Positions 11,055 to 31,692 are shown, numbered from the stretch's first letter. The stretch is DNA of 64,000 bases from Erysipelotrichia bacterium (GCA_030525245.1 JAUNFB010000003.1:8424-72423), one strand, 5' to 3'. Numbers and translations are program-made. Notes: generated by a model from the sequence alone, not told the origin.

Positions 11055-11726
11055 ATGGACAATTTAGAAAAACAGTTTTTCGAGGCAGCATTTAATAACG
11101 ATATTAATGCTGTTAAAGAAACAATCGAGAAAGGTGTCAATGTGAATGTTGTTAACGAACAGCAGCGCAGTGCTCTGATGCGTGTTGCTAAACGCGGAAG
11201 AATACAGATGACAAGATTATTGTTGGATAATGGAGCAGAAGTTGATTTAAGAGATTATCATGAAAAAACAGCTTTAATGGGTGCCAGCAAAAAAGGATAT
11301 TATGAAGTAGTACAGATGCTTTTGGAAGCCGGAAGCGATGTAAATGCTTATGACTATAACAAAAACAATTCACTTATGCGTGCCAGCTTTTACGGTTTCG
11401 ATGATGTAGTAAGATTATTGTTACAATACAATGCTGATATCAATGCTCAAGATACCAAAGGAAGGACAGCATTAATGGAAGCTTGTTCGGCAGGGAATAT
11501 TGCGGTAATTGATGTGTTGCTTTCAAGAGGAGCAGATGTTAATTTACAGGACAATATGGGTTGTACAGCATTGATGCGCGTTGCTTATGCCGGATTTGAT
11601 GAATTGGTAAAACTATTAATTAACAACGGTGCAGATAAAACAATGAAAGATAATGACGGAAAAACAGCCGGTGATTATTATGCCGACAGAAATAAAAATG
11701 AAGAAATATATTGTATATTAAAGTAG
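11055..11726 (+). CDS. Ankyrin-repeat protein (about 6 repeats)
   Basis: 33-aa periodicity with TALM.A...G....V..LL..GADVN repeated six times. Confidence 0.9.
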   Translation: MDNLEKQFFEAAFNNDINAVKETIEKGVNVNVVNEQQRSALMRVAKRGRIQMTRLLLDNGAEVDLRDYHEKTALMGASKKGYYEVVQMLLEAGSDVNAYDYNKNNSLMRASFYGFDDVVRLLLQYNADINAQDTKGRTALMEACSAGNIAVIDVLLSRGADVNLQDNMGCTALMRVAYAGFDELVKLLINNGADKTMKDNDGKTAGDYYADRNKNEEIYCILK

Positions 11727-11740
11727 GAGGATAAATTTAA

Positions 11741-13795
11741 ATGAAAGAATATACGGGAAAATTTATTAAAAATGTAGCTGTTTTAGGCCATACTGGTGCC
11801 GGTAAAAGCGAAGTTTTGGAGTCAATGTTATTTAATACTAAAGTAACAGACCGTTTCGGTAAAGCCGTTGACGGCACAAGCATTATTGATTATGACCAGG
11901 AAGAAATAAAAAGAGGAATGTCGGTTTATTCTTCAATTGTTCCTATTGAATGGAAGGATTATAAAATTAATTTCATCGATACTCCGGGTTATTTAGACTT
12001 TGCCGGAGAGCAAGTTGCCGCATTGGCTGTTGCCGATTCGGTTATGATTGTTGTTAATGCCAAAGACGGTGTGCAATCGGGAACAATGAAAGCTTATCGT
12101 CAAGCTGTAAGCAAAAATTTACCTGTTTTCTTCTTTGTTACCAGAGTTGACGAAGAAAATGCCGATTATGAAAAAACTGTTAAGGAATTGGAAAAACGCT
12201 GCAAAGCATCACCGTTAGTATTGCCTATTATTGAAGGCGGTAAGGCTGTTGGAACAGTTAATGTTATTAGTGAAAAAGCTCATATCAACGGTGCCGAAGT
12301 GGAAATTCCTGATCAATTTAAGTTAGAAGTTGAAACCGGTCACCATGAGTTATGTGAAGCTATCGCTATGACTGATGATGAATTGACTGAAAAATTCTTG
12401 ATGGAAGAGCCGTTTACCGATGAAGAAATGATTAAGGGTGTTTCCAACGGTTTAAGAAATGGAGAAATTCGTCCTATTTTATGCGGTAGTGCTACTAAAT
12501 ATATCGGTATTGATGTTTTATTGGATGCTATTATTAAATATTGCCCGTCATATGTTGAAAAGGGAACTGTTACCGATGCTAACGGCAAGGTTGTTAGAAC
12601 CAGTGATGATGAATCGTTCAGTGCCTTTATCTTTAAAGTAGTTACCGATAATTTCGCTCAGGCATCTTATGTTAAAGTTATGAGCGGTGTGTTGACTATG
12701 GATACTCCTTTGTACAATACAACTGAAGAAGAAAATGAAAAATGCGGTTCTATCGTTTTGGTAAGAGGTAAGAATCAGGAAAAAGTCAGCAAATTGGAAA
12801 CAGGCGATATTGGTGCTATTTTGAAATTGAATAACACTTCAGTTAATGATACTTTAGCTACTAAAGCAAATCCAATTAAATATCAACCTATCGAATTCCC
12901 TAAGGGAATGTTAGGAAAGGCTTTATGGCCAAAGACAAGAAATGATGAAGACAAACTTTCAACCGGCTTGGCAAAATTATCAGCTGAAGATAAATCAATG
13001 AAAGTTGTCAATAATACTGAAACCAGAGAACAGGTTTTATACGGTATCGGAGATCAACATATCGATGTCATCGTTAACAAGTTAAAATCAAGATATAAAG
13101 TTGAAGTTAATTTGACTGAACCGACAGTTCAATATCGTGAAACCATTTTGGGTAAAGCGGAAGTTCAAGGTAAACATAAGAAACAATCAGGAGGTGCCGG
13201 TCAATACGGTGATGTTTGGATCAGATTCGAATCTAATCCGGAACAGGATGAAATGGTATTTGCTGAAGAGGTTGTCGGCGGTGCTGTAAGTAAGAACTTC
13301 TTCCCGGCTGTTGAAGCAGGATTAAGAGAATCAATGAATAAAGGTGTTCTTGCCGGATTTAAAGTTGTGCAAGTAAAAGCTACATTATATGATGGAAGTA
13401 TGCACCCGGTTGATTCTAAGGAAGTTGCTTTCAAGGCAGCTGCAAGATTGGCTTATAAGAAGGGTATGCCTTTAGCTAAACCGGCATTGTTGGAACCGAT
13501 TATCCGTGCGGAAGTAACTATTCCGGCTGAATATGTAGGTACGATCTATGGAGACTTCTCTAAACGCAGAGGAATGATCATGGAAAACAATGCGATTGAC
13601 GATGAAACAACAGTTATCATTGCCGAAGTACCGCAAGCGGAAATGATTAATTATGCTACCGAATTGAGAAGTATGACACAAGGTAACGGTTCATATACGT
13701 CTGAATTTATTCGCTATGAAAAGGCTCCTAAAGAAGTGGCTGATAAAGTTATTGCTGCTGCAAAGAGCAAGATGGAAGAGGACGACGAAGACTAA
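11741..13795 (+). CDS. EF-G-family translational GTPase paralogue
   Basis: 684 aa with G1 GHTGAGKS, G3 DTPGY and G4-like TRVD. Domains II-V are collinear with EF-G (HKKQSGGAGQYG, AFKAAARLAYKKG). Confidence 0.85.
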   Translation: MKEYTGKFIKNVAVLGHTGAGKSEVLESMLFNTKVTDRFGKAVDGTSIIDYDQEEIKRGMSVYSSIVPIEWKDYKINFIDTPGYLDFAGEQVAALAVADSVMIVVNAKDGVQSGTMKAYRQAVSKNLPVFFFVTRVDEENADYEKTVKELEKRCKASPLVLPIIEGGKAVGTVNVISEKAHINGAEVEIPDQFKLEVETGHHELCEAIAMTDDELTEKFLMEEPFTDEEMIKGVSNGLRNGEIRPILCGSATKYIGIDVLLDAIIKYCPSYVEKGTVTDANGKVVRTSDDESFSAFIFKVVTDNFAQASYVKVMSGVLTMDTPLYNTTEEENEKCGSIVLVRGKNQEKVSKLETGDIGAILKLNNTSVNDTLATKANPIKYQPIEFPKGMLGKALWPKTRNDEDKLSTGLAKLSAEDKSMKVVNNTETREQVLYGIGDQHIDVIVNKLKSRYKVEVNLTEPTVQYRETILGKAEVQGKHKKQSGGAGQYGDVWIRFESNPEQDEMVFAEEVVGGAVSKNFFPAVEAGLRESMNKGVLAGFKVVQVKATLYDGSMHPVDSKEVAFKAAARLAYKKGMPLAKPALLEPIIRAEVTIPAEYVGTIYGDFSKRRGMIMENNAIDDETTVIIAEVPQAEMINYATELRSMTQGNGSYTSEFIRYEKAPKEVADKVIAAAKSKMEEDDED

Positions 13796-14572: not shown

Positions 14573-15121
14573 ATGAAGAAATTTTGTTTAATATTGGTAC
14601 TTTTGTTATTGTTGTTGGGGTGTCAAGAAAAGATTGTTTATGATTCACCTCAAACATCGGTCAGTGATATGAGCGGATATGGTTTGCAGAGTGAACAATT
14701 TTATACCTTGACCATTGAGGAATTTTTAGATTTAATTGCTCAAAAGAAAACGATTATTGTTTATTTCGGTTATGAAGGATGCCCTTGGTGTACTGATTTA
14801 TTGCCAATTCTTAATGAAGTGTCTATAGAAAAAGGTCTGTTGCTTTATTATATTGATTTTCATGACGAAAAAAATATGAATGATATCGAAGGCTTGGAAA
14901 AAATAGAAGAGTTGGCTGCCGATTTAATGGAAGAGGATGAACAAGGTCAGCTCAAGTTATATTTTCCGACAGTATATTATGTTCAAAAGGGTACGATTAT
15001 TCAATTGCATCAAGGTACTGTTTCCGGTCATGATGCGTCTTTGAATGATTTGACGGAAAAGCAAAAAGCGCGATTAAAATATAATTTGGAAAAAGAATTT
15101 GATAATTTGTTTAAGGAATGA
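14573..15121 (+). CDS. Thioredoxin-fold lipoprotein (CPWC)
   Basis: Lipobox LLLLGC and the CxxC motif GCPWC in a Trx-like context. Confidence 0.7.
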   Translation: MKKFCLILVLLLLLLGCQEKIVYDSPQTSVSDMSGYGLQSEQFYTLTIEEFLDLIAQKKTIIVYFGYEGCPWCTDLLPILNEVSIEKGLLLYYIDFHDEKNMNDIEGLEKIEELAADLMEEDEQGQLKLYFPTVYYVQKGTIIQLHQGTVSGHDASLNDLTEKQKARLKYNLEKEFDNLFKE

Positions 15122-15540
15122 TTATGCGAAAAAAAATTTTGATTATTACGATCTTATTGTTGCTTTTGGTGGGCTGTAAGAAGTTTACTAAAGGGGAAAT
15201 AATAACGGCCAATGCAGCCGAAATTTTGAAAAAATTGGAGAACAAAGAAAGTTTCATTGTATATATAGGATATGATGATTGCCCTTCCTGCAAAGAGTAT
15301 CGACCGGTTTTACAGCAGCTGATTGAAAATTATGCTGTTACAATTTATTATTTACCGACAGATGATGAAAAATATCAATCTGAGTTGGATGAGATTCAAT
15401 ATGATTATTTTTATCGAATGTTGTGGACTCCAAGCACTTATATCGTTGATAACGGAGAAGTAACCGATATGCGCGAAAAGGTTTTGGAATATCAGGATTT
15501 GGAAAGTTGGCTTGATGAATATGGAAAATTATCAGAGTGA
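15118..15540 (+). CDS. Thioredoxin-fold lipoprotein (CPSC), paralogue of the preceding gene
   Basis: Lipobox LLLVGC and the CxxC motif DCPSC. The start overlaps the upstream stop by 4 nt. Confidence 0.7.
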   Translation: MIMRKKILIITILLLLLVGCKKFTKGEIITANAAEILKKLENKESFIVYIGYDDCPSCKEYRPVLQQLIENYAVTIYYLPTDDEKYQSELDEIQYDYFYRMLWTPSTYIVDNGEVTDMREKVLEYQDLESWLDEYGKLSE

Positions 15541-16327
15541 AGAGATTAAATATATTATAACGGAAGACGAATTATTAAGTCAGTTGCGTCATTTGGGTAT
15601 CAGAGAAGGTATGACTTTGGAGGTTCATTGCGCATTCAGTAAGTTGGGACCGGTTATCGGCGGACCGACAGCATTGAACAATGCTTTGATCAGAGCGGTC
15701 GGAGAAGATGGCAATATTGTGATGGCTAATCAAGATTACAATAATACCGAGCCGCTTTTTTGGGAAAATCCGCCAATTGATTTTCGCTTAATGAAAAAAG
15801 TTAGAGAAAATTCTCTGGGTTTTGATGTTCGCAGCAGTGCATTGCATTTAATGGGGATATTGGTCGATGAGATGCGTTCACGTAAAGATACAAGCCGTTC
15901 ATACCACCCTAATTGTGCTTTTATTGCCTATGGAAAAGATGCGAAATATTTGATGAGCAATCAACCTTTGTCTTTTCCGTTAGGGATGAAATCTCCTTTG
16001 GGCAAAATGTATGCGATGGACAATGTTTATACATTATTGATCGGTTGTGATTATGACAATTGCACTTCTTGGCATTTGGCTCAGTACTTATCCGGTTGTT
16101 ATGGGATCATAATGCAAGGCGGATGTGTGAAAAAAGATGGTGAAAATCAATGGAAGAAGTATTTAGACTATGATATTGATTCTCATGATTTTTGTTCTAT
16201 CGGCAAATTACTGGAAAAAAATGAAATGATTAAAACAGGAAAATTGCAAGATGCGGTTTGTAAATTATTTAAGATGAGAGAAACGGTGGATTTTGCCTGT
16301 GATTTTTTAAGGAGTAAGTATGAATGA
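15515..16327 (+). CDS. AAC(3)-family (Antibiotic_NAT) N-acetyltransferase-like protein
   Basis: LRHLGIREGMTLEVHCAFSKLGPVIGGPTALNNAL and the later CTSWHLA resemble aminoglycoside 3-N-acetyltransferases. The start is ambiguous (TTG 15512, ATG 15515 or 15521) and overlaps the upstream gene. Confidence 0.7.
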   Translation: MNMENYQSEEIKYIITEDELLSQLRHLGIREGMTLEVHCAFSKLGPVIGGPTALNNALIRAVGEDGNIVMANQDYNNTEPLFWENPPIDFRLMKKVRENSLGFDVRSSALHLMGILVDEMRSRKDTSRSYHPNCAFIAYGKDAKYLMSNQPLSFPLGMKSPLGKMYAMDNVYTLLIGCDYDNCTSWHLAQYLSGCYGIIMQGGCVKKDGENQWKKYLDYDIDSHDFCSIGKLLEKNEMIKTGKLQDAVCKLFKMRETVDFACDFLRSKYE

Positions 16328-17000
16328 TTTAAAATGTTTTAAGGGTGTCATCTTTGATATGGATGGTTTGCTGGTAGACTCGGAAAGGTTCAGCAAGCAT
16401 CTATATAGGGAAATCTTTAATGATTTAAATGTGCATTTTGATAATAATATTTTCAAAAATGTATTGGGTTTGAGTCGTCAAGCCGAAAGTCAATATTTGG
16501 AGGAACTCTTTGGAAGTGCGACTAAAGTGGAACAATTCTATGATCTTTATTCGAAAAAATTATATGATTCTTATAAGGAAAGTAAAATACCTCTGAAGCA
16601 AGGAGCGGAACAGTTATTATTCTGGTTAAAGGAAAAAGAAATCCCATTTGCTTTGGCTACATCTTCACCTTTAGGAGCAGTGAAGTTGGCTTTTTGTAAT
16701 CGAAATATTTCTTTGTCTGATTTTACTTCTGTTATTACTGCTGACGATATCACTAAAAGCAAACCCGATCCGCAAATATTTTTAAAGGCTGCCGATAAAA
16801 TACATTGTTCAATCGAAGACTGTGTCATTCTGGAAGATTCTTATAATGGGATAATGGCAGCGATTGCTTCCGGAGGAATTCCTATGCTGGTTATTGACTT
16901 ATATAATCCTGATGAAGAAGTAACGAAAAAAGTTAAATACATTAAAAATAATTTGTCGGAAGTATTGAATCTGTTGCAGGAGACCTATGCGACAAATTAA
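16320..17000 (+). CDS. HAD-IA phosphatase (beta-phosphoglucomutase-like)
   Basis: Motif I IFDMDGLLVDSE and motif IV-like LEDSYNG. The start overlaps the upstream stop. Confidence 0.8.
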   Translation: MNDLKCFKGVIFDMDGLLVDSERFSKHLYREIFNDLNVHFDNNIFKNVLGLSRQAESQYLEELFGSATKVEQFYDLYSKKLYDSYKESKIPLKQGAEQLLFWLKEKEIPFALATSSPLGAVKLAFCNRNISLSDFTSVITADDITKSKPDPQIFLKAADKIHCSIEDCVILEDSYNGIMAAIASGGIPMLVIDLYNPDEEVTKKVKYIKNNLSEVLNLLQETYATN

Positions 17001-19461
17001 TTTAGGAATATTGGCTCATGTTGATGCCGGGAAAACAACACTTAATGAGTGTTGCCTTTATCATGGGGGAGTCATTCGCAAAATCGGTAGGGTGGATAAT
17101 CGAAATTCTTATTTTGACAGTAATCCTTTGGAAAAAAACAGAGGAATTACAATATTTACAAAAACAGCCGGTTTTACTTGGCATGGCAGTAATATTACCT
17201 TGGTGGACACACCGGGGCATAAAGATTTTGTCGGTGAAATGGAAAGAACTTTACAGGTGCTAGATGAAATTGTGTTGGTTATCAGCGGTTTAGATGGGGT
17301 ACAATCACAAAGTGAAATAATATTTAAGTTGTCCGAGCAGTATAATTTACCGCTATTTGTTTTTATCAATAAGATGGATTTAACCAATTTTACTCAGCAA
17401 CAACTTTTAGCTGATTTGAATAACAAATTGAAAGGACATTTCATTCCTTTTAATGATTTTGATACGGAAGCGGTAGCTTTAAGCGATGAAAAACTTTTGG
17501 AAGAATATTTAAATACAAAGGCATTATCTGTTCCGTCAGTTGCTCAAGCGATAAAAGAGCGGAGGATTTTTCCGGTATATTTCGGCAGTGCTCTAAAGGA
17601 TAAGGGGATTGTGGAATTACTGAACGGCATTGAAAAATTCAGCGCAGAGAAGAAGTATCCGCAACAGTTCGGTTTACGGATTTTTAAGGTTGCTTACGAG
17701 GATAATACGCGTTGGTGCTATGGAAAAGTTACCGGTGGGACACTGGCCGCTAAACAGAAATTGACCGAAGATGAGAAAGTTGACCAATTGTTTATCCCTT
17801 CTTCCGATAAATTTATTCCGGTAAACAGAGTAGAAGCCGGGCAGATCGTTGCGATAAAGGGATTGAAGGTATTGAGTGCCGGAAGCGGTGTAGGTATCGA
17901 GGAAAATGAGAACTTTTCCCGTATTAAAGCTTATATGCAGTATAGTGTAGAAACATCGGGAAATGTTGATCAAAAAGAATTATTGAAGCAGTTAGAAATG
18001 TTGCGTCAGGAAGATCCGTCAATTGAAATTATTTATCAACCGCAATTGAAACAATATTGTTTGTTTTTGATGGGAGAAATTCAAATTGAAGTCATTGAGG
18101 CTTTGATTAAACAGCGTAGCGGCATTGATATTCGTTTGGTTTGTCCAAAGGTAGTATATAAAGAGACTTTAACGGAAGGCATCATCGGATATGGTCATTT
18201 TGAACCGCTTAGGCATTATGCCGAAGTGCATGTATTGTTGGAACCGTTAGAAAGAAATAGTGGTATTGAGATTGTCAATGGTTTGAATAACGATGAGCTG
18301 AGCCAAGGATGGCAAACTGCGATTATGAACAGTCTGCAACAAAAAAAATTTAAGGGTGTATTGACCGGCAGTGAAATTACAGATATGAGAATAACAGTAA
18401 TTCGGGCAAAAGGAAGTTTGAAGCATACCGAAAGCGGTGATTTCCGGCAAGCGGTTTATCGGGCAATCAGGAATGGTTTGAAAAGGGGCAAAAGCATTCT
18501 TTTAGAGCCTTATTATGAATTTATGATCAGGGTTAAAAGAGAATATGTCAGTAAGGTTCTTTTTGATTTGGAAATGATGAAGGCACAAGTTCAATTGAGT
18601 CAACAGTTCGATGACACCATAATTACAGGTAAAGCCCCGGTAAGATTAATGAATGAATATATTAATTCATTTTCTTCCCAATGTTCCGGCACCGGTAAGA
18701 TTGATTATAAATTGAGCGGTTATGAGCAATGTTGTGACAGTGAAGAAATTATTAAGGAAATAAATTATGACAGTGAAGCGGATTTAGATTGTCCGACCGG
18801 TTCGGTTTTTTGCTCTCATGGCAGTGGTTTTTATGTTCCTTATGATTATGTGGCGGATTATATCCATATCAAAGAAGACAATTATCGTATTTCATCGGAA
18901 ATAACGGAAAGAAACCATACAGTCAGTGATTCGGAGTTAAAGAAAGTATTTGCGGATATAAACGGCAGAAATCGTAAAGATAAAAAAATGACAGAGAAAA
19001 AGGTGTATAAAGAATCTTATACACCTAAGAAAGTAGTAATTAAACCGAAATTATTAATAGTTGACGGCTATAATATTATTTATAATTATGAAAAGACTAA
19101 GGAATTGATGCGAGACAGTTTGGATAGTGCTCGTGATGTTTTGATTAATGATGTAGCCTCTTATACCGGTTATCTTGGCTATAAGACTATTATTGTTTTT
19201 GATGCTTATAAGAGGGAAGAAAATACCGGCAAGAGCTTTGTGAATGGCAGTGTAACGGTGGTTTATACCAAACAGGGACAAAGTGCAGATTCATATATTG
19301 AAAAGTTGGTTCACGATCATATCGACGACTATCGTATCACTGTTGCTACTTCCGATAGAGCTGTGCAGGATATGGTTCTCGGTTGCGGTGCCATCCGAAT
19401 GAGCGCTCGGGAATTGCAGTTGAATTTAGAATATATGCATAACCAGGCCGACAGTAAGTAA
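16987..19461 (+). CDS. Tet(M)/EF-G-type ribosomal GTPase fused to a C-terminal YacP/Rae1-type NYN ribonuclease domain
   Basis: N-terminus GILAHVDAGKTTL, RGITI, DTPGH, NKMD. C-terminus (nt 19042..19461) LLIVDGYNIIY, ARDVLI, IIVFDAY, SADSYIEKL, VATSD, GAIRMSAREL. It is one uninterrupted ORF. Confidence 0.85.
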   Translation: MRQINLGILAHVDAGKTTLNECCLYHGGVIRKIGRVDNRNSYFDSNPLEKNRGITIFTKTAGFTWHGSNITLVDTPGHKDFVGEMERTLQVLDEIVLVISGLDGVQSQSEIIFKLSEQYNLPLFVFINKMDLTNFTQQQLLADLNNKLKGHFIPFNDFDTEAVALSDEKLLEEYLNTKALSVPSVAQAIKERRIFPVYFGSALKDKGIVELLNGIEKFSAEKKYPQQFGLRIFKVAYEDNTRWCYGKVTGGTLAAKQKLTEDEKVDQLFIPSSDKFIPVNRVEAGQIVAIKGLKVLSAGSGVGIEENENFSRIKAYMQYSVETSGNVDQKELLKQLEMLRQEDPSIEIIYQPQLKQYCLFLMGEIQIEVIEALIKQRSGIDIRLVCPKVVYKETLTEGIIGYGHFEPLRHYAEVHVLLEPLERNSGIEIVNGLNNDELSQGWQTAIMNSLQQKKFKGVLTGSEITDMRITVIRAKGSLKHTESGDFRQAVYRAIRNGLKRGKSILLEPYYEFMIRVKREYVSKVLFDLEMMKAQVQLSQQFDDTIITGKAPVRLMNEYINSFSSQCSGTGKIDYKLSGYEQCCDSEEIIKEINYDSEADLDCPTGSVFCSHGSGFYVPYDYVADYIHIKEDNYRISSEITERNHTVSDSELKKVFADINGRNRKDKKMTEKKVYKESYTPKKVVIKPKLLIVDGYNIIYNYEKTKELMRDSLDSARDVLINDVASYTGYLGYKTIIVFDAYKREENTGKSFVNGSVTVVYTKQGQSADSYIEKLVHDHIDDYRITVATSDRAVQDMVLGCGAIRMSARELQLNLEYMHNQADSK

Positions 19462-21644: not shown

Positions 21645-21720
21645 TGGTGCCACTTGTCGGAATCGAACCAACGACCTACTCATTACGAATGAGTTGCTCT
21701 GCCGACTGAGCTAAAGTGGC
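21645..21720 (-). tRNA. tRNA-Thr (anticodon CGU)
   Basis: The reverse complement GCCACTTTAGCTCAGTCGGCAGAGCAACTCATTCGTAATGAGTAGGTCGTTGGTTCGATTCCGACAAGTGGCACCA folds as a cloverleaf. The anticodon loop is TTCGTAA and CCA is encoded. Confidence 0.9.
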
Positions 21721-25819: not shown

Positions 25820-25949
25820 AATGCTTGCCCTCCTTGCATCATTTACTATATTATACAAATATTTAATTGGTTAGCGCAACAATCTGCCTGTAAGCGTTAT
25901 ATAAATTGTAGTTATAGACAAATAAAAGTGATTCATCTATAATAATTTA

Positions 25950-26040
25950 CGGACAGGGGTGCCGAAAGGCTGAGATAGACCCTTAGACCTGATCCGGTTA
26001 GTACCGGCGTAGGAAGATCTAAGTTGGGATACCTGTAGAA
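25950..26040 (+). promoter_or_regulatory. TPP (THI-box) riboswitch
   Basis: GGGGTGCC..GGCTGAGA..ACCCTT.GACCTGATCCGGTTAGTACCGGCGTAGGAA matches the conserved TPP aptamer core. It lies directly upstream of thiT. Confidence 0.85.
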
Positions 26041-26053
26041 AGGTGTTTTTTTT

Positions 26054-26563
26054 ATGAAAAGAAATGTTAAAGATTTAGTTTATGTTGCATTGTATGCTGC
26101 CCTATTTGTCGCTTTAGACTATGTTACCAATGTTTTGAATTTGTTCAGAATGCCGGATGGAGGAAGTTTATCTTTCGCAACAGTCGCTTTGTTATTGGCA
26201 AGCTACCATTTAGGAGTGAAGAAGGGCTTGGCTGTTTGCGCTCTTTCGGTTGTTTTGATGTTTATAATCGGTTCAATTAAATTTTATGGTATTGTCAGTT
26301 TATTGTTGGATTACATTGTTGCTTATTGCGCTTACGGTTTGGCAGGTGCGTTTAAAAATTATAAATGGTTTTATCCGGGAATTGTGATTACCAGTTTAAT
26401 TCGCTTGGCAAGTTCTACTTTAGCCGGAATGTTGGTTTGGGAAACTCCTTTTTGGGGTTCATTAAGTTATAATGCTTCTTATATCATTCCGACAATGATT
26501 GTTGATTTAATTTTTGTACCTTTGTTGTATAATATTCTTAAACCGACATTTGAAAAGAAGTAA
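26054..26563 (+). CDS. thiT: Thiamine ECF-transporter S component
   Basis: 169-aa protein with 6 TM helices behind a TPP riboswitch. The ThiT-like N-terminus is LVYVALYAALFVALDY. Confidence 0.8.
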   Translation: MKRNVKDLVYVALYAALFVALDYVTNVLNLFRMPDGGSLSFATVALLLASYHLGVKKGLAVCALSVVLMFIIGSIKFYGIVSLLLDYIVAYCAYGLAGAFKNYKWFYPGIVITSLIRLASSTLAGMLVWETPFWGSLSYNASYIIPTMIVDLIFVPLLYNILKPTFEKK

Positions 26564-31615: not shown

Positions 31616-31692
31616 TGGCGTCCTTATCCGAATTCGAATCGGAGACCTTTCGCTTAGGAGGCGAACGCTCTATCCAGCTGAGCTATAAGGAC
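31616..31692 (-). tRNA. tRNA-Arg (anticodon CCU)
   Basis: The reverse complement GTCCTTATAGCTCAGCTGGATAGAGCGTTCGCCTCCTAAGCGAAAGGTCTCCGATTCGAATTCGGATAAGGACGCCA folds as a cloverleaf. The anticodon loop is CTCCTAA and CCA is encoded. Confidence 0.9.

Follow-up and report, generated by a model that had tools for sequence, protein, structure and literature searches.

One 64,000-nucleotide stretch of DNA from an Erysipelotrichia bacterium (GCA_030525245.1, JAUNFB010000003.1:8424-72423), called the window here, contains an uninterrupted open reading frame (ORF) in which a Tet-like translational GTPase is fused to a C-terminal Rae1-type NYN nuclease. The protein belongs to a previously noted and uncharacterised family that is widespread among Clostridia of the gut and their relatives. 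Since the fusion is real and both modules keep their catalytic residues, which do not vary across the family, a ribosome-targeted nuclease is a reasonable reading of it. We favour the form of this reading in which the protein is a Rae1 that docks on the ribosome under GTP control and cuts the mRNA of stalled or collided ribosomes, and we put its chances at about even; the ribosome binding, the mRNA substrate, the trigger and the tie to ribosome rescue are parts that we infer. The features of the ORF are given below with residue numbers of the fusion protein.

16979-16983, plus strand: ribosome-binding site GGAGA, a Shine-Dalgarno sequence ahead of the fusion ORF
16987..19461, plus strand: fusion ORF of 824 codons, stop codon at 19459-19461, Tet-like translational GTPase plus C-terminal Rae1-type NYN nuclease
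16987..17637, plus strand: G domain, residues 1-217 (Pfam GTP_EFTU, 1.8e-48), with G1 AHVDAGKTT, G2 RGITI, G3 DTPGH, G4 NKMD and G5 GSAL
17218-17220, plus strand: catalytic His78 of DTPGH, conserved in the family alignment
17638..17931, plus strand: domain II beta-barrel, residues 218-315, with strands at 229-303 in the AlphaFold2 model
17932..18135, plus strand: domain III, residues 316-383 (Pfam EFG_III, 3.5e-10)
18145..18489, plus strand: domain IV, residues 387-501 (Pfam EFG_IV, 7e-12)
18187-18231, plus strand: domain-IV tip segment GxGH[FY]EPLRHYAEVH, residues 401-415, family-specific and near-invariant
within 18406-18453, plus strand: domain-IV tip segment KHTEGGDFRQA, residues 479-489, family-specific and near-invariant
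18499..18732, plus strand: domain V, residues 505-582 (Pfam EFG_C, 4.2e-15)
18733..18879, plus strand: post-domain-V module, residues 583-631 (helix, beta-hairpin, helix), with a predicted local distance difference test score (pLDDT) of 84-91
18880..19047, plus strand: flexible tether, residues 632-687, with a helix at 648-658 (Glu650 and Gly660 conserved) followed by a Lys-rich stretch
19048..19458, plus strand: Rae1/YacP-type NYN domain, residues 688-824 (Pfam NYN_YacP, 1.1e-41)
19063-19065, 19201-19203, 19288-19290 and 19354-19356, plus strand: catalytic Asp693, Asp739, Asp768 and Asp790 of the NYN domain

The reading frame of 16987-19461 was unbroken, and Pfam assigned GTP_EFTU to residues 2-217, EFG_III to 316-383, EFG_IV to 387-501, EFG_C to 505-582 and NYN_YacP to 690-823 of the one product. 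An earlier note on this DNA had claimed a single-ORF fusion of this kind, with a Lys-rich linker and NYN sequence blocks from residue 686 (nucleotide 19042), and had expected these Pfam matches; the continuous frame and the domains within it bore this out, and the linker (residues 661-688) and the blocks were present. When the gene was compared with a relative that is about 87.5-90% identical and has the same synteny (L172), the ratio of nonsynonymous to synonymous substitution rates (dN/dS) was 0.075 overall; the NYN domain gave the lowest value (0.050), followed by domains II-V (0.061), the linker (0.086) and the G domain (0.096), and the post-domain-V module gave the highest (0.159). The whole ORF is under strong purifying selection. 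We also considered whether a missed stop, or a mistake in sequencing or assembly, had merged two neighbouring genes, and we give this explanation next to no probability: the frame is continuous, even the linker is under purifying selection, and the same architecture is found in hundreds of independent assemblies, isolate genomes included. Nothing was found in favour of an assembly artefact. An internal start at Met669, which would give an NYN-only product, was rejected because this Met is not conserved beyond the nearest relatives.

The GTPase motifs were located where the earlier note had placed them (AHVDAGKTT at residues 10-18, RGITI at 52-56, DTPGH at 74-78 and NKMD at 128-131). Across 115 aligned, non-identical members from Clostridia and Erysipelotrichales, the source of all conservation counts in this text, G1-G5 and His78 showed no or almost no variation. 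The window protein has all of the family-wide motifs, namely the domain-IV tips, the Cys/His module after domain V and the NYN Asp tetrad. Domain II is recorded as PF22042 (EF-G_D2) in many homologues. The AlphaFold2 model had a mean pLDDT of 83.5 and was confident over residues 1-631 and 688-823, and Foldseek returned ribosome-bound EF-G, EF-G2 and mtEFG2 as the top matches for the body (E about 1e-52). Despite this EF-G-like fold the fusion protein is, as judged from its sequence, not EF-G: it scored 253.7 against a cut-off of 659.4 with TIGR00484 and 306.7 against 583 with NF009381. The window also holds a second EF-G-family gene (11741-13795, 684 residues) 3 kb upstream, with the gene of an ankyrin-repeat protein (11055-11726) in front of it. 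This gene passes NF009381 (801 against 583) and fails TIGR00484 (577 against 659), and it is probably an EF-G paralogue because it does not lie in a str-operon context. The ankyrin-repeat and EF-G-like pair is kept in L172 and not in the relative L001.

The C-terminal domain matched NYN_YacP (PF05991) over residues 690-823 with 143 bits, where the gathering score is 24.6, and its 139 residues matched the crystal chains of B. subtilis YacP/Rae1 (5mq8/5mq9) with an E value of 1.3e-22. The active site of NYN_YacP proteins is defined by a D-GYN motif that follows strand 1, together with four or more active-site Asp residues (PMC5499597). The D693-G-Y-N motif was present, and Asp693, Asp739, Asp768 and Asp790, the acidic residues on which the nuclease assignment depends, were each found in 115/115 members. 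Asp693 and Asp768 align to D7 and D81 of Rae1, and D7N D81N is the published Rae1 catalytic mutant (PMC10351889). From these intact residues the nuclease is predicted to be catalytically competent. The fused NYN domains are 40-48% identical to stand-alone Rae1-type proteins and have the same active site. Their chemistry and substrate class are probably those of Rae1, mRNA on stalled or collided ribosomes. In NYN_YacP proteins the nuclease core is followed by two C-terminal helices that carry conserved basic residues. The match of the window protein covered profile positions 1-136 of 166 and left the last ~30 unmatched, with one C-terminal helix (807-823) modelled. The window protein ends 15 residues past Glu809 (residues 808-824, 19408-19458). 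Together with 35 others of the 115 members it has no more than 20 residues after this Glu, and most members keep a tail of ~37 residues; this tail appears to be the counterpart of the second basic helix in NYN_YacP proteins, and stand-alone Rae1 has it as well.

Rae1 is a Gram-positive, translation-dependent mRNA endonuclease whose cuts in the mRNA of stalled or collided ribosomes pass these ribosomes on to tmRNA (PMC12407103; PMC13622287), and it makes tmRNA substrates on collided ribosomes also after erythromycin (PMC13622287). The fusion shares with Rae1 (YacP; PDB 5MQ8/5MQ9) the NYN_YacP fold family, the DGYN motif and the four active-site Asp residues. Rae1 is however a stand-alone protein of ~170 residues that is encoded in an rlmB-yacP-sigH cluster and binds the ribosome transiently, whereas the NYN domain described here is covalently tethered to a GTPase. 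The Rae1 neighbourhood is not shared either, as the window NYN is fused to a 687-residue N-terminal part and its neighbours are HAD, AAC(3)-like and glycosyltransferase genes.

Two segments connect the GTPase body to the nuclease. The post-domain-V module has no counterpart in the C terminus of TetM or TetO, and alignments to these proteins stop at residue 580-582. Four Cys and His residues of the module region are highly conserved (C582 in 110/115 members, C609 in 114/115, H611 in 104/115 and H627 in 113/115), and this pattern suggests that Cys582, Cys609, His611 and His627 (18730-18870 in the window) may form a metal-binding site. The tether that follows is predicted to be disordered, with pLDDT below 50 at residues 632-647 and 659-683 of the model and the short helix at 648-658 in between. 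Across the family the segment from His627 to Asp693 is 65-142 residues long, the window protein being the shortest, and the net charge of the tether ranges from -8 to +14. Because of this range the Lys-richness of the window tether is a trait of its clade and not a rule of the family. For the C-terminal 242 residues there was no matching NCBIfam model.

The same arrangement was found widely. The protein database has more than 120 full-length homologues of 820-873 residues, 42-90% identical and with the same precomputed Pfam architecture. Their labels are 'NYN domain-containing protein', 'translation factor GTPase family protein' or, mistakenly, 'TetM/TetW/TetO/TetS family'. A GTDB scan with one genome per species matched at least 80 loci, over ~residue 1 to ~815 of the query at 37-43% identity, in Lachnospiraceae and Oscillospiraceae and in genera that include Ruminococcus, Faecalibacterium, Blautia, Dorea, Anaerovorax, Fusibacter, Intestinimonas, Flavonifractor, Holdemania and Solobacterium. 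The family is also present in Monoglobus and in Erysipelotrichales, and it is chromosomal and single-copy in every locus seen. An uninterrupted ORF of 822-980 residues with a P-loop and DGYN was found in 85/87 independently assembled loci. Among the best 150 NYN-matching cluster representatives at 50% identity, about 45 are proteins of 800-990 residues with a C-terminal NYN domain. In a neighbour-joining tree of 265 NYN domains the fused and the stand-alone forms did not fall into separate groups, and single or multiple fusion events were not inferred because this 130-residue domain gives poor tree resolution. At two of the loci additional observations were made. Intestinimonas butyriciproducens has, 2.4 kb upstream of a complete fusion gene and on the opposite strand, a 127-residue fragment (L052 7219-7593, minus strand) that is 37% identical to the N-terminal GTPase part and may represent the remains of a pseudogene or an incomplete duplication. 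A record from a human faecal virome, 'UNVERIFIED: Bacteriophage sp.' (MT835563.1, L090 5397-8024), carries an 875-residue fusion ORF on high-GC DNA; its most likely source is bacterial DNA within the virome, not a phage.

The TetM-like plus NYN_YacP architecture was noted by Atkinson 2015 (BMC Genomics, PMC4342817) and by Matelska et al. 2017 (NAR, PMC5499597). Both describe the architecture only, in about ten species, with speculation on tetracycline resistance (PMC4342817; PMC5499597). Their proteins have the same architecture and come from the same lineages, as the 'Clostridiales/Clostridia' of that time took in today's Erysipelotrichales, and the window protein is a member of this set. The earlier note's statement that no characterised protein has this architecture still seems to hold, in that no functional study was found, but the architecture itself was in print and is common in public genomes. 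Beyond those two papers, the present analysis adds the absence of the Tet-defining residues, the family's own domain-IV tips, the Cys/His module, the disordered and variable tether and a sister family without the nuclease.

In the mechanism that we favour the GTP-bound five-domain body would dock at the factor-binding site of the ribosome, as EF-G and TetM do, and the conserved domain-IV tip would read the state of the ribosome, whether stalled, drug-arrested or collided. Docking would raise the local concentration of the tethered NYN domain, which would cut the mRNA on the ribosome at a place other than the A site. This could be close to the entry channel, on the side of the factor site, or in the stretch between a stalled ribosome and the one that trails it. 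The truncated mRNA would then feed trans-translation as in the Rae1/CART pathway, and hydrolysis of GTP by His78 would release the factor. The earlier note had likewise proposed a GTPase-delivered, ribosome-targeted mRNA nuclease. The fusion and the intact catalytic residues of both modules agree with that proposal, but its premise that Rae1 cuts in the A site is outdated, having been withdrawn by the same laboratory, and the current Rae1 model is cleavage on collided ribosomes (PMC13622287). Rigid delivery of the nuclease into the A site also does not fit the protein itself, in which the nuclease is carried on a tether of 65-142 residues that is predicted to be disordered. In TetM-class GTPases domain IV fills the A-site region (PMC8161019), and because of this and of the long, disordered and variable tether a cut outside the A site is more likely. 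A cut between the stalled and the trailing ribosome would fit the revised position of Rae1 cleavage. The proposed outcome resembles that of SmrB in E. coli and of Cue2/NONU-1 in eukaryotes, which cut mRNA on stalled or collided ribosomes and so lead to rescue (PMC13622287). These nucleases differ in that their SMR fold is unrelated to NYN and that they are recruited through contacts at the collision interface or through ubiquitin-binding domains, not by a translational GTPase.

Several points weigh against this mechanism. A ribosome-bound structure of Rae1 does not exist, because its binding is transient (PMC13622287). The tail that is missing from the clade of the window protein may matter for substrate binding, and a tether so variable in length and charge would fit a loose leash and be silent on the target. 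Among the loci compared, no operon partner was found that is conserved across Clostridia or that points to ribosome rescue, and a full-text literature search found no functional study of any member of the fusion family.

The variable tether also raises the question of whether the two modules cooperate on the ribosome at all. The GTPase could be an appendage with a regulatory or autoinhibitory role, or a factor in its own right, with the NYN domain acting as a general cytoplasmic RNase; a long and disordered tether would allow this, and each module is found alone, Rae1 elsewhere and the GTPase body in Bifidobacterium. The latter was recognised from NYN-less Tet-like GTPases of 647-754 residues at four IMG/VR loci (L093 1-2178, L094 4686-6845, L096 1-2262 and L170 407-2347), which are 37-41% identical to the fusion over residues 1-628. 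All four ORFs end directly after the post-domain-V module, without tether and without nuclease. Three of them (L093, L094 and L096) carry all of the signatures, HFEPLRHY, KHTEGGDF and SVFCAHG...FMHL, and those of L170 are divergent (HFEPLKHY, KHTSGGDF). The best 120 database relatives of one NYN-less protein were 662-753 residues long, bar one fragment of 549 residues, and all were without PF05991; where named they came from Bifidobacterium and were labelled 'elongation factor G' or 'TetM/TetW/TetO/TetS family'. The NYN-less proteins are likewise below the Tet cut-offs. This sister family, which shares the GTPase signatures of the fusion and is apparently a conserved gene of Bifidobacterium, is new in this analysis, and since the same body exists without a nuclease in Bifidobacterium, the tether and the Rae1-type nuclease were added to an existing Tet-like ribosome factor. 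Separate action of the two modules is nevertheless improbable in our judgement, as the fusion is kept as one ORF in 85 loci over deep divergence with both active sites invariant. Cooperation through docking is the simplest reading because both parents act on the ribosome, both active sites are strictly selected and the fusion has been kept.

If the fused protein does the work of Rae1, its relation to stand-alone rae1 genes is of interest. No second NYN gene was found in the window or in 86 locus flanks, and a profile search with stand-alone proteins gave no contigs shared with the fusion. Among NYN-matching PLSDB records that are really pieces of chromosomes, 0/26 carry two NYN genes. In Monoglobus pectinilyticus (NZ_OY725736.1/NZ_OY725739.1; L175, L176 and L178) the fused gene was the only NYN match in the PLSDB records, although these 'plasmids' are evidently chromosome fragments for which genome completeness is not established. 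There pta-ackA precedes sigH, and a TIGR00282 metallophosphoesterase gene comes after rlmB, with no yacP at either anchor; the canonical rlmB-yacP-sigH arrangement is therefore absent from these records. C. difficile and Acetoanaerobium have the canonical stand-alone gene and no fusion in their PLSDB records. These distributions hint that fusion and stand-alone rae1 are mutually exclusive, and in some Clostridia, for example Monoglobus, the cell may have no Rae1 other than the fused protein. A 718-residue hypothetical protein downstream of rlmB in Vescimonas was inspected and set aside, being unrelated and without a Pfam domain.

In complexes of TetM and EF-G with the ribosome the C terminus of the GTPase body emerges near rRNA-rich surfaces. 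A ribosome-directed RNase could have rRNA or tRNA as its substrate and act in maturation, in quality control, or in the inactivation or dismantling of ribosomes under stress. NYN_YacP was first tied to rRNA and tRNA processing by its place in the gltX-cysS-mrnC-rlmB-yacP operon (PMC5499597), rlmB and sigH flank the stand-alone homologue P0243, and in Eubacterium xylanophilum a SpoU-type methyltransferase gene follows and overlaps the fusion gene. We consider an rRNA or tRNA substrate unlikely. All experiments on Rae1 show translation-dependent cleavage of mRNA (PMC12407103, PMC13622287, PMC10351889), the identity and the shared active site noted above tie the fused NYN domain to the Rae1-type proteins, and the SpoU adjacency was seen in only 1/85 loci. 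The E. xylanophilum locus (L080 7002-13370) is a tight DUF1385-prmC-prfA-fusion-SpoU methyltransferase cluster downstream of rho, and its translation-termination context is unique among the 85 loci.

The remaining explanation starts from the GTPase side. Atkinson 2015 suggested a ribosomal protection protein against tetracycline or another A-site antibiotic to which an accessory RNase has been added. Tet ribosomal protection proteins were indeed the top matches, with tet_protect as the best NCBIfam model (379.9 bits) and TetO/TetM as the nearest solved structures by sequence (E 2e-70, collinear up to residue 580-582), and PGAP labels some members as TetM/TetW/TetO/TetS family. Like Tet(M) and Tet(O) the fusion has a collinear five-domain EF-G-like GTPase without a long G' insertion, and the docking site and GTP-dependent release are presumably the same. 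However, every curated Tet cut-off was missed by far: tet_protect requires 775 bits, and the scores were 276.5 against 1100 for tet_protect_M_W, 263.7 against 900 for Otr(A) and 225.3 against 1420 for Tet(M). In TetM, Pro509 lies in the tetracycline site and contacts C1054 (PMC8161019). The TetM loop Y506-Y-S-P509-V aligned to G476-S-L-K479-H, in which Lys479 is found in 115/115 members, and the loop of the family, (A/G)HLKH, stands in place of YYSPV. The C-terminal extension of TetM and TetO was not matched, with the TetO and TetM alignments ending at query residues 582 and 580. The fusion family differs further in that it is not on mobile elements and adds the post-domain-V module, the tether and the nuclease; it is chromosomal and deeply diverged (37-90% identity) over two classes. 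IMG/VR contigs held true tet genes (~29% identity) or the NYN-less relatives, and no NYN fusion was found among them. Searched against PADLOC-DB, which holds models of anti-phage defence, the protein gave no match at E <= 1e-3.

The neighbouring genes bear on the resistance explanation as well. Five genes are tightly packed here with the fusion gene at their downstream end, and the upstream four (14573..17000, plus strand) are as follows.

14573-15121 and 15118-15540, plus strand: two PedC/BrcD-like thioredoxin-fold proteins
15512-16327, plus strand: AAC(3)-like N-acetyltransferase
16320-17000, plus strand: HAD phosphatase

The start codon of the fusion ORF lies within the 3' end of the HAD gene, with an overlap of 14 nt, and the G+C content of the fusion gene is ordinary for its region. 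These four genes are probably co-transcribed with the fusion ORF, though a partnership is unproven. A 50%-identical relative (L001/L002) and the 90%-identical L172 both have them in this order. No Rfam element, convincing promoter or terminator was found beside the fusion gene. An AAC(3)-like gene next to the fusion would suit a role in resistance, and a MATE efflux gene adjoins some other members: it occupied position -1 on the same strand in 6/78 loci (L003-L006, L011 and L012) against a background of 0.7%, an enrichment that is uncorrected for phylogeny. The carriers are Thomasclavelia, Longibaculum, a Lachnospiraceae metagenome-assembled genome (MAG) and a Blautia MAG, representing four independent lineages. 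Together these neighbours point weakly to a recurrent link between the fusion family and drug-related genes, which counts towards the favoured mechanism as well. The AAC(3)-like protein, however, scored 133.6 bits against a resistance-family cut-off of 270 and is for this reason not a recognised resistance enzyme. By its model scores and its substituted tetracycline-site loop the fusion protein is probably not a tetracycline-resistance protein, and we regard an antibiotic-protection factor with an added RNase as quite improbable.

Elsewhere in the window, a thiamine pyrophosphate (TPP) riboswitch (63 bits; 25945-26032, plus strand) lies upstream of genes starting at 26054, and tRNA genes were found at 21648-21720 and 31619-31692, both on the minus strand. 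These elements are unrelated to the fusion.

The labels of the family have a practical side. A 933-residue fusion member of Agathobacter rectalis (WP_306784676.1; NZ_CP143948.1, L091 6102-8903) is named in RefSeq 'TetM/TetW/TetO/TetS family tetracycline resistance ribosomal protection protein', which is probably an over-annotation. The 251-kb 'plasmid' that carries it looks chromosomal because a methionyl aminopeptidase and a PASTA kinase/PP2C pair are on it. As some fusion members are mislabelled in this way, resistome surveys of gut Clostridia may over-count Tet proteins.

The fusion may also say something about Rae1 beyond its own family. We tentatively suggest, as a possibility that we hold less probable than the docking mechanism itself, that the Tet-like GTPase subfamily is a GTP-gated licensing and delivery module for Rae1-type cleavage on stalled or collided ribosomes, with the fusion as its 'Rosetta stone'. 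If true, this would be a bacterial counterpart of GTPase-assisted no-go decay, and since a GTP analogue that resists hydrolysis could lock the fusion in place, Rae1 on the ribosome would become visible in a structure for the first time. The fusion offers the hypothesis that recruitment of Rae1 is controlled by GTP, together with GDPNP trapping as a handle on it. The family is both a source of false 'tet' annotations and a lead into how Rae1-type nucleases reach ribosomes.

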